Notes: generated by a model from the letters alone, not told the origin. Counted from the first letter of the stretch, positions 55,326 through 56,976 are shown. The stretch is 64,000 nucleotides of DNA from Escherichia coli (GCF_003018235.1 NZ_CP027437.1); one strand, 5' to 3'. Program-made: numbers and translations.

Positions 55326-56821
55326 TATGCAGACTCCTCTGAATACTGAAGACGGAACTGGTTAACCACGGCAAAGACACGCAACTGGTTAACATAGTCA
55401 GGCGGGAACAGCGTGTTCAGGCGGTTCGGATCGCTGGCATCACGCTCCACAACCAGGTACTGCTTAAACAGTTCGTAGTTTTCCACGATCCCCGCACGCT
55501 CAAGCTGACGGTAGGTTGCCAGCAGTTCCCCTTTGATCACCGCCGGGGTGACAATCGCCTGACCGGGACCAAAGCGGGTACCGTCACTGGCAAGCTTGTG
55601 ACGCCCGTACTTACTGGTAATGACGGATTTCAGTTTGCGCAGTACATACGCGCTGGTATGCAGTGTCTCACTGTCGAGGTAGCTGTTATCCGCAACCCCG
55701 TAAGCGTTTTTCCTGTACGTGGTGACATCACGCTGAATGCGCAGTACCCCGCTTTCGACATACGCCGTTGCCACGCCATGAGACAGCAGGGTCTGTTGTT
55801 CTGTCATCGTGAACCGTTTCCCCTTCGGCGCAGGCAGCATACCCACCATCTCACCGGTCTGCGTGGGACGTGCCGGATCGTTGCGGATAAACACCGCTGC
55901 GCGGGCGGTACGGCTGGCTGCCAGCTCGTCGGCAGGCGTCTGGGTCTCTTTTTCGTACCCCGCCAGGGTAATGTGCTGCTGGTTAAACTGGTCACCTGCG
56001 TTCACCAGTTCTGACAGTGTGCCGGCCTTTGCCGTATACACATGACCATACAGCTGACGCGCATAGCTCCAGCGACCGCTGGTATCGTTCATCTCGGTCA
56101 CCAGCGTGTTAACAGAGGCCGTGTCGTTGAACGGCAGACCGATATAATCAAACGGCTCATCCGCCATTGCAGCCACCGCGCCGGTGAGAACCGGAGCGCC
56201 CGTTCCGGCGGTCCCCGTCGCCACGGCAATCTGTACGCCCGCTGGCAGCACTTCGCCCCCACCGAAGCCGTAGTAATTGAGGCTGACAGGAATTTCATTC
56301 CCGCAAAGCCCCTTATGGCGAGCGGTCAATGTAACCACACCAGCCGAAGATGAGGCCGTAAACGGCAGGGCCGGAACGGCATTGATGGCATCTTTGATAC
56401 TGCTGGCAATCGTCGCGACGTTATCGCCGTTGGTCACCGGTGCCTGCACGCGGGTACGTCCCACATAAACATTCACCGTGCCGGTTTCGGTTGCTGCCCC
56501 GGTCACCGTCAGCGTAACTGTTGCCGCCGCGCCTGTGGATTCAGGAACGGCAATCACATACAGCTCGCCAAACGGGTCGGTCTGGCGATAAGCCTCGACC
56601 ATACGCGCCAGCTGACTTCCCGCACCACAAATCTGGCGTGCATAGTCTGCCGACGGCATCAGTACCAGACTGTTGGCAACAATCTCTGCACCGTTATTGG
56701 CATGACCAATCAGCAGCGATGCTCCGCTGTCCTGTGCAGTATTCGCCGCCTGGTTATCCATTTCCGCATAAAACAACGGAACCAGCGTATTCGACGGAAT
56801 GGTGTTAAAGCTTATCGTCAT
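55325..56821 (-). CDS. contractile tail sheath protein (Mu gpL-like)
   Basis: 498-aa ORF recognised by family resemblance. Confidence 0.8.
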   Translation of the reverse strand: MTISFNTIPSNTLVPLFYAEMDNQAANTAQDSGASLLIGHANNGAEIVANSLVLMPSADYARQICGAGSQLARMVEAYRQTDPFGELYVIAVPESTGAAATVTLTVTGAATETGTVNVYVGRTRVQAPVTNGDNVATIASSIKDAINAVPALPFTASSSAGVVTLTARHKGLCGNEIPVSLNYYGFGGGEVLPAGVQIAVATGTAGTGAPVLTGAVAAMADEPFDYIGLPFNDTASVNTLVTEMNDTSGRWSYARQLYGHVYTAKAGTLSELVNAGDQFNQQHITLAGYEKETQTPADELAASRTARAAVFIRNDPARPTQTGEMVGMLPAPKGKRFTMTEQQTLLSHGVATAYVESGVLRIQRDVTTYRKNAYGVADNSYLDSETLHTSAYVLRKLKSVITSKYGRHKLASDGTRFGPGQAIVTPAVIKGELLATYRQLERAGIVENYELFKQYLVVERDASDPNRLNTLFPPDYVNQLRVFAVVNQFRLQYSEESA

Positions 56822-56976
56822 CGGTATTCACCTTTTTATTCACGCGCCGGATATCACCCGCTGCTTCACGGCGCAGCCAGTAGTTGTTCTCGTCAACATT
56901 TCGCCCTTCGGCGGGCAAAAGGTCGCCGCGGGCAGGGTCAGGCACTGACCGCCCTTTAACAGGTTTGACAAACATG
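56805..56976 (-). CDS. small phage protein (DUF2635-like) upstream of the sheath gene
   Basis: 57-codon ORF MFVKPVKGRSVPDPARGDLLPAEGRNVDENNYWLRR..., whose stop overlaps the sheath start; below the ORF-track size cutoff. Confidence 0.35.

Follow-up and report, generated by a model that had tools for sequence, protein, structure and literature searches.

Described relatives of the small tail gene

The closest described relatives of the gene analysed here are orf10 of Shigella phage SfV and its counterparts in SfI, SfII, SfIV, SKA5 and vB_EcoM-720R4. In SfV, orf10 is flanked by a tail terminator gene (orf9) and a tail sheath gene (orf11), and its product (NP_599042.1) carries in RefSeq the label 'DUF2635 domain-containing protein; similar to phage Mu GP38'. 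The gp38 proteins of Mu (Mu_38, AAF01116.1) and FluMu belong to DUF2635 and PHROG 208 as well, and Mu_38 likewise sits between a terminator gene (K, gp37) and a sheath gene (L, gp39). A further homologue in the same trio of genes is orthogroup OG0000019 of the Rp4 tailocins (e.g. PFL_1215, PflQ8_1132 and Orf10 of DVM-2008), which is the only member of the family with direct protein-level detection. Finally, gp125 of Agrobacterium phage 7-7-1, a protein of 68 aa, is encoded between the terminator gene gp124 and the sheath gene gp126.

The tail assembly chaperones, e.g. gpG/GT of lambda and gp41 of Mu, may be regarded as functional analogues only, there being no homology to DUF2635. The likeness would be that of small tail-module proteins made together with structural genes, and the common view of tail assembly chaperones is that assembly requires them whereas the finished tail lacks them.

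The locus in the Escherichia coli window

The window, i.e. the entire stretch of 64,000 nucleotides of Escherichia coli DNA that was analysed (NZ_CP027437.1), contains a small ORF amid tail genes that are encoded on the minus strand. The features of this locus are as follows.

56984..57544, minus strand: tail terminator gene, upstream neighbour of the small ORF, 186 aa, PF23840 (Phage_tail_terminator, E 2.7e-26), the counterpart of SfV orf9
56981..56985, minus strand: GAGGA, Shine-Dalgarno sequence of the small ORF as read from the sequence, with the ATG 5 nt downstream
56805..56975, minus strand: small ORF, 171 nt, ATG at 56975..56973 and TAA at 56807..56805, 56 aa plus stop
56829..56834, minus strand: AAGGTG, serving the sheath gene as Shine-Dalgarno sequence, as read from the sequence, with the sheath ATG 7 nt downstream, enclosed by the small ORF near its 3' end
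56805..56821, minus strand: overlap of 17 nt, shared by the small ORF (3' end) and the sheath gene (start), which are read in different frames
55325..56821, minus strand: Mu-type tail sheath gene, downstream neighbour, 498 aa, ATG at 56821..56819, PF04984, PF17482 and PF17481, phrog_165
54649..54972: tail assembly chaperone gene (PF10109), separate from the small ORF

The translation of the small ORF (56805..56975, minus strand) is MFVKPVKGRSVPDPARGDLLPAEGRNVDENNYWLRREAAGDIRRVNKKVNTDDDKL. Its start lies 8 nt past the end of the tail terminator gene, and its GAGGA overlaps the TGA stop codon (56986..56984) of that gene. At the other end, the position of the sheath Shine-Dalgarno sequence within the small ORF makes for a layout that is compatible with translational coupling. 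Among solved structures the sheath of the window is closest to that of Mu (9khy, E 5.9e-80).

The original prediction had placed an ORF at 56805-56976 and left its strand unstated; the ORF does exist, on the minus strand, but the upper coordinate is one base too far. It had also described the ORF as filling the gap between a tail-completion gene and the sheath gene. The position before the sheath gene is correct, whereas the adjoining upstream gene is the tail terminator, the 'tail completion/Neck1' gene being located one gene further upstream. An overlap of the stop codon with the sheath ATG, which had been proposed as well, does not apply to the window with its 17 nt in another frame; it is in Mu and phiP27 that a 4-nt overlap of the ATGA type is found.

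Family membership and selection

A profile search with the translation matched the small ORF to Pfam family PF10948 (DUF2635) with E 9.8e-17 and 60.9 bits, well over the gathering score of 26.6, residues 3-47 being aligned with model positions 1-45/46, and to PHROG 208 with E 3.6e-26 and 91.8 bits, residues 1-55 being aligned with positions 4-59 of the 64 in the profile. The resemblance to DUF2635 that had been noticed beforehand was thus confirmed. All of the family-conserved residues P5, D13, P14, L20, G24, V27, W33, R35 and R36 are present in the encoded protein; W33 is the same in all of 139 diverse DUF2635 members, the other eight being conserved in at least 90% of them, and an alignment of 29 members has 16 invariant columns.

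SfV orf10 and its counterparts in the other five phages named above encode a protein 100% identical to that of the small ORF and share its neighbours and its 17-nt overlap, so that there is no difference of substance between the gene of the window and those of the SfV group. Over the surrounding 2.3 kb the window is 97-99.7% identical to the Shigella and E. coli phages SfV, SfI, SfII, SfIV, SKA5 and vB_EcoM-720R4, and in 80 related loci the encoded protein is 100% identical over the matched stretch, in 68 of them at full length. More distant are DVM-2008 Orf10 (59.5% identity, tblastn) and Mu gp38 (42% identity over 52 residues, E 9e-7). The latter differs by its length of 67 aa, its longer basic tail and the overlaps with its two neighbours (14 nt and 4 nt), and its terminator partner belongs to PF08873, while that of the window belongs to PF23840. 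A word-indexed search returned 125 cluster representatives, of which all those with a name were called 'DUF2635 domain-containing protein' or 'hypothetical protein'; an exhaustive profile search returned 2046 clusters (50% identity) at E <= 0.001.

With respect to size alone the small ORF is not distinguished from its surroundings, as the 6 kb around it contain 66 ORFs with 30 aa or more, several of which overlap it. The case for a gene therefore rests on homology, position, selection and peptides. As to selection, the codons of the small ORF differ from those of SfV orf10 by three synonymous and no non-synonymous changes, and dN/dS is 0.064 in comparison with ST64B and 0.19 in comparison with phiP27; the small ORF is under strong purifying selection.

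Four other ORFs run over the same stretch, on the plus strand or in the alternative minus frame. As none of them had a match in Pfam or PHROGs, they were rejected as candidates for the gene.

That the small ORF might be there by chance, given how frequent chance ORFs of its length are in this sequence, is an explanation which is already refuted and retains next to no probability: its matches to DUF2635 and PHROG 208 are far above threshold, its homologues are numbered in thousands, it has a ribosome-binding site (GAGGA) and evolves under purifying selection, and peptides span 88-93% of its homologues in two proteomes. Judged by these sequence comparisons, it proves to be a real late gene belonging to an SfV-like prophage, a member of DUF2635 / PHROG 208 and a homologue of Mu gp38. 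The earlier reading was right. Since the ORF is SfV orf10, which is annotated in RefSeq, the gene is not new, and both family and position had likewise been on record.

The same data bear on a mainly regulatory function, in which either translation of the short ORF would supply the start of the sheath gene with ribosomes or the encoded protein would bind mRNA and thereby set the level of sheath. The location of the sheath Shine-Dalgarno sequence inside the ORF and the conservation of overlaps of 1-17 nt would be in line with such a function. However, a pure coupling device would not preserve residues, whereas here W33 is invariant, eight positions are conserved to at least 90% and dN/dS is 0.06-0.19, and the fusion of the domain to fibre-like proteins (see below) would make no sense for an mRNA-binding regulator. 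A mainly regulatory role is therefore considered improbable.

Gene order and the tail module

The order terminator, small gene, sheath was found in SfV, SfI, SfII, ST64B, phiP27, Mu, D108 and SfMu, and in addition in Pseudomonas/Stutzerimonas phage PG1, in the P. fluorescens tailocin-like element DVM-2008 and in the prophage of GCA_900141905.1. The synteny with Mu-like tail clusters that the original prediction had envisaged holds, since the small gene directly precedes the sheath gene in every relative examined. In each of these loci the two genes either abut or overlap by 1-17 nt: the overlap amounts to 17 nt in SfV, 11 nt in ST64B and 4 nt in Mu and phiP27, and to a single nucleotide in DVM-2008, PG1, GCA_900141905.1 and the Pseudomonas Rp4 tailocins.

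The DUF2635 gene is found next to terminators of differing Pfam families or of none, and beside heads of different types, i.e. HK97-like in SfV, ST64B and the window, Mu-type in Mu and lambda-like in GCA_900141905.1. Two kinds of headless clusters have kept it as well, namely the element DVM-2008 of P. fluorescens Q8r1-96 and the SfV-like Rp4 R-tailocins of Pseudomonas, which differ from the locus of the window in being domesticated tail clusters. In the Rp4 clusters a holin gene is directly followed by the first structural genes, namely the terminator gene, a gene of 182 bp and the sheath gene (PMC8319346, Tables S2 and S3), and the small gene OG0000019 is present in 12/12 strains listed for the Rp4 orthogroups (PMC8319346, Table S3). 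Because both heads and terminators vary, the gene goes with the Mu-type contractile tail and not with any one head or connector, and it follows from this distribution that it is part of the Mu-type contractile-tail module, not of the genes for the head or for head-tail joining, and that its role is specific to the tail.

Predicted fold

An AlphaFold2 model of the small protein, built on the 29-sequence alignment, has a pLDDT of 85, with values above 90 at residues 1-45 and below 50 at residues 49-56. Residues 1-45 are predicted with confidence to form a small domain of short strands with a single helix at 31-38, and the final eight residues are predicted to be disordered. Model and alignment together divide the protein into a conserved domain (residues 1-45) and a variable charged tail (residues 46-56), and throughout DUF2635 this C-terminal tail varies in length and composition, the members listed having mostly from about 50 to 105 residues.

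A Foldseek search of the model against BFVD yielded nothing at E <= 0.001, the top match being gp125 of phage 7-7-1 (probability 0.99, TM 0.68). This protein belongs to PHROG 208 with E 5.7e-7 over its full length but falls below the Pfam threshold for DUF2635, with an hhalign probability of only 22%, and a homologue search that starts from gp125 retrieves gp125 alone. The predicted fold also bears a weak likeness to the RNA-binding N-domain of ribosomal protein L9.

The protein in virions and tailocins

Two members of the family, Mu gp38 and 7-7-1 gp125, can be compared with virion data. In the maps of the Mu virion, which were obtained at 3.3-3.8 A for both the extended and the contracted state, gp35, gp38 and gp41 are not resolved; the authors nevertheless rate gp38 as 'probably structural' (PMC11915804). 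Mass spectrometry of purified 7-7-1 virions identified 24 proteins, among them gp124, gp126, gp127 and even a protein of 3.2 kDa, but not gp125 (PMC3517404), and the text of the 2025 cryo-EM paper on 7-7-1 makes no mention of it. The same is true of gp19 in the two Milano structure papers, this protein being placed by its number alone between the terminator gp18 and the sheath gp20. Sequence and profile searches of the PDB, the Mu coordinates included, yielded no chain matching the DUF2635 family. In the only relatives examined, Mu and 7-7-1, these data say that the DUF2635 protein is no ordered, stoichiometric part of the purified virion. Flexibility, low occupancy, symmetry mismatch or loss during purification may also account for an absence from cryo-EM maps.

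T4 has separate terminators for the tube (gp3) and for the sheath (gp15), and by analogy the small protein might be a second cap which ends the polymerisation of the sheath. The location of its gene between terminator and sheath genes in every relative would suit such a 'sheath terminator', and the Mu record AF083977 does call Mu_38 a 'putative sheath terminator protein', albeit without citing evidence. In Mu, however, gp37 alone caps the tube and, by means of a C-terminal hairpin, also binds the last sheath ring, where gp38 is not seen (PMC11915804). Moreover, neither in sequence nor in fold does the small protein resemble any terminator (T4 gp15-like, Mu gp37-like, PF23840 or PF08873), and with 56 residues it is far below the size of the known ones, so that a function as sheath terminator is very unlikely.

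Evidence at the protein level comes from MudPIT proteomics of Pseudomonas tailocin preparations, where the DUF2635 homologue ranks among the proteins with the best coverage (PMC8319346, Table S4). In Pse04 it was detected with 93.3% coverage, 69 spectra and an NSAF of 0.026, as compared to 0.051 for the sheath and 0.018 for the terminator. In Pse05 its coverage was 88.3% and its emPAI the second-highest of the approximately 1100 rows listed for that sample, and in Pse06 it is apparently listed as well, as judged solely by the count of its tag (PMC8319346, Table S4). According to these data, the homologue is produced abundantly along with the proteins of the tail. The samples were crude, being 30% ammonium sulfate precipitates in which tailocin protein made up just 8-16% (PMC8319346), and a chaperone-like protein of the same cluster was equally abundant in the crude Pse04 sample (PMC8319346, Table S4). 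Still, a soluble protein of 60 residues would not obviously be brought down at 30% saturation without being attached to a large partner, which hints at its association with the particle. Abundance in crude precipitates fits an assembly factor and a particle component alike.

In the library searched, no paper was found by the names DUF2635 and Mup38, and the SuMu proteome paper and the tailocin paper of Ghequire (2015) contain nothing on this gene.

Fusions to fibre-like proteins

In a few long members of the family, about 5 of the 150 representatives listed, DUF2635 makes up the first ~45 residues of a much larger protein. A match of P0262 (756 aa) to the SASA esterase family is 'faint' in the precomputed table and reaches E 4.4e-6 on search, and P0262 shares with P0193 (737 aa) the fibre-like motif 'RFN..T.RFEG..GW'. 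The genes of both come after a fibre gene, that of P0262 being preceded in turn by Mu-type baseplate genes. P0153 (402 aa) has an fn3 domain and is encoded among head-tail connector genes. The prophage of GCA_900141905.1 has the 756-aa fusion in addition to a standalone DUF2635 gene that precedes the sheath gene. With the fusion N-terminus as query, tblastn found no cultured phage with such a fusion in 50,697 phage records, and a fusion of DUF2635 to the sheath is not seen among the 150 representatives listed. The N-terminus is the usual site of the virion-docking domain in fibre-like proteins. The fusions say that the DUF2635 domain can dock to some component of the particle.

Taken further, the small protein might be a flexible or sub-stoichiometric component of the particle itself, docked to the outer surface of the tail in the region of the sheath or neck. 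Its C-terminal tail would then point into the solvent, and the dock would bear fibres, Ig-like domains or esterases in some phages, SfV and Mu being left with a short charged tail only. All three of these suppositions we consider possible but rather unlikely. Apart from the position of DUF2635 at the N-terminus of P0262, P0193 and P0153, the location of the first two genes behind a fibre gene and the coexistence of standalone and fused versions in one prophage, they draw on the predicted disorder and variable length of the C-terminal extension, on the high recovery from 30% ammonium sulfate tailocin precipitates of at least two strains and apparently a third, and on the opinion of the authors of the Mu structure (PMC11915804). 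On the other hand, the protein is unresolved in both states of the Mu virion (PMC11915804), no chain of the family is found in the PDB, the 7-7-1 member was undetected in purified virions (PMC3517404) and is unmentioned in the cryo-EM paper, the chaperone-like protein was just as abundant in the crude tailocin sample, and the fusions are rare. Compared to an assembly factor, a docked protein fits the fusions better and the virion data from Mu and 7-7-1 worse, and is its main rival.

A possible role in tail assembly

The best explanation, although falling somewhat short of an even chance, is that the small protein is an accessory factor for the assembly of tail or sheath which is not stably retained by the mature particle. 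It would be made together with the sheath by way of a tightly coupled or overlapping reading frame, and its conserved N-terminal domain of 45 residues would attach to a component of the tail, the sheath subunit or the junction of sheath and terminator being the most probable ones. Once bound, it might prevent sheath subunits from polymerising wrongly or, alternatively, help the last sheath ring to engage with the terminator. Thereafter it would leave the tail or stay attached only loosely, and would thus not be present in the purified particle in an ordered, stoichiometric form.

The sheath or the sheath-terminator junction is named as the likeliest partner because the coupling to the sheath gene is invariant. 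Overlapping and coupled genes, however, are the rule throughout the late operons of phages, and the coupling to the sheath gene is therefore weak evidence for a sheath partner. In favour of an assembly factor are the distribution with the tail module, the high level reached along with the tail genes, the lack of an ordered copy in the virion and the coupling to the sheath gene; against it, the N-terminal location in the fusions suggests stable binding to the particle, at least in those phages.

In a combined form, DUF2635 / PHROG 208 might be a dedicated and widely conserved partner of the Mu-type sheath, a small module with a recognition site on the sheath or at its junction with the terminator, which in most phages and tailocins is transient in assembly and was re-used by some phages as an N-terminal dock for additional fibres or esterases on the tail. 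This can be put forward tentatively at best, being on balance doubtful. If true, it would add a new component to the assembly pathway of the 'minimal' contractile tails, tailocins included.

Distribution and annotation

DUF2635 is very common, with some 2000 clusters at 50% identity, and has been kept even in domesticated tailocins. Its role would be of interest for tailocin engineering and for the study of minimal contractile tails. The evidence on this role pulls two ways, as the protein is abundant in crude tailocins and fused to fibres, yet invisible in three virion studies. The fibre fusions and the contrast between crude tailocins and purified virions are new and may be taken as modest leads.

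With the exception of the details given above, the original prediction for the small ORF is supported by the comparative data. Annotation pipelines with a cut-off of 60 aa miss the DUF2635 gene. In the records of phiP27 and SfIV it is unannotated even though its sequence is present, an omission which fits its length, as this is under common ORF cut-offs; in RefSeq it is annotated for SfV, SfI, SfII, ST64B, Mu and others.

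Distribution and annotation of the small ORF family

Judging from profile similarity, the family of the small ORF probably reaches into the group of Agrobacterium phage 7-7-1, because gp125 of this phage matches PHROG 208 (E 5.7e-7).

L095 (phage 7-7-1), 9733-9939: gp125, 68 aa, between terminator and sheath

No match to gp125 was obtained with the Pfam family DUF2635. The protein is missing in the published virion proteome (PMC3517404), nor does the cryo-EM paper on 7-7-1 mention it in its text. Also in phiP27 (L005, 2501-2662) and in SfIV the small ORF is present, and in the GenBank and RefSeq records of both phages it was left unannotated. 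The GenBank record of Mu (AF083977; L002, 3492-3695) labels gp38 as a 'putative sheath terminator protein' with no reference given, a role that finds no support in the 2025 Mu virion structure (PMC11915804).

DUF2635 as part of longer proteins

In some long proteins the DUF2635 domain constitutes the first ~45 residues. The loci concerned, including one standalone copy, are:

L087/L091, 10001-12271: DUF2635 locus
L089, 1580-3793: DUF2635 locus
L090, 3036-4244: DUF2635 locus
L092, 5343-5519: DUF2635 locus

Two of the fusion proteins (756 and 737 aa) are fibre-like, and one of them matches the SASA esterase family. Both of their genes come after a gene for a fibre; in L087/L091, Mu-type baseplate genes are followed by the fibre gene and then by the fusion gene. 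The third fusion (402 aa) carries an fn3 domain, and its gene resides amid head-tail connector genes. In the prophage of GCA_900141905.1, a standalone DUF2635 gene preceding the sheath gene and a DUF2635 fusion are both present.

Tail assembly chaperone and head-closure genes

Tail chaperones usually show a programmed frameshift, and a candidate -1 shift in the window looks like such an event.

54649..54972, - strand: tail assembly chaperone gene (PF10109)
54715-54721, - strand: slippery run U UUU UUU within this gene (window sequence)
58022-58432: head-closure gene, 136-aa ORF

Past the slippery run the -1 frame comprises 52 open codons up to a stop at 54559..54557 (-), and the predicted fusion product would have 138 aa. 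This stop lies in an overlap with the beginning of the tape-measure gene, whose ATG is at 54564. In SfV the equivalent gene is annotated without the frameshift.

The head-closure ORF shares 26 nt with the gene that follows it (57541..58047). It encodes 136 aa as compared to only 98 aa annotated for SfV orf7 (L001, 3283-3579), reflecting either a differently called start codon or a true difference.
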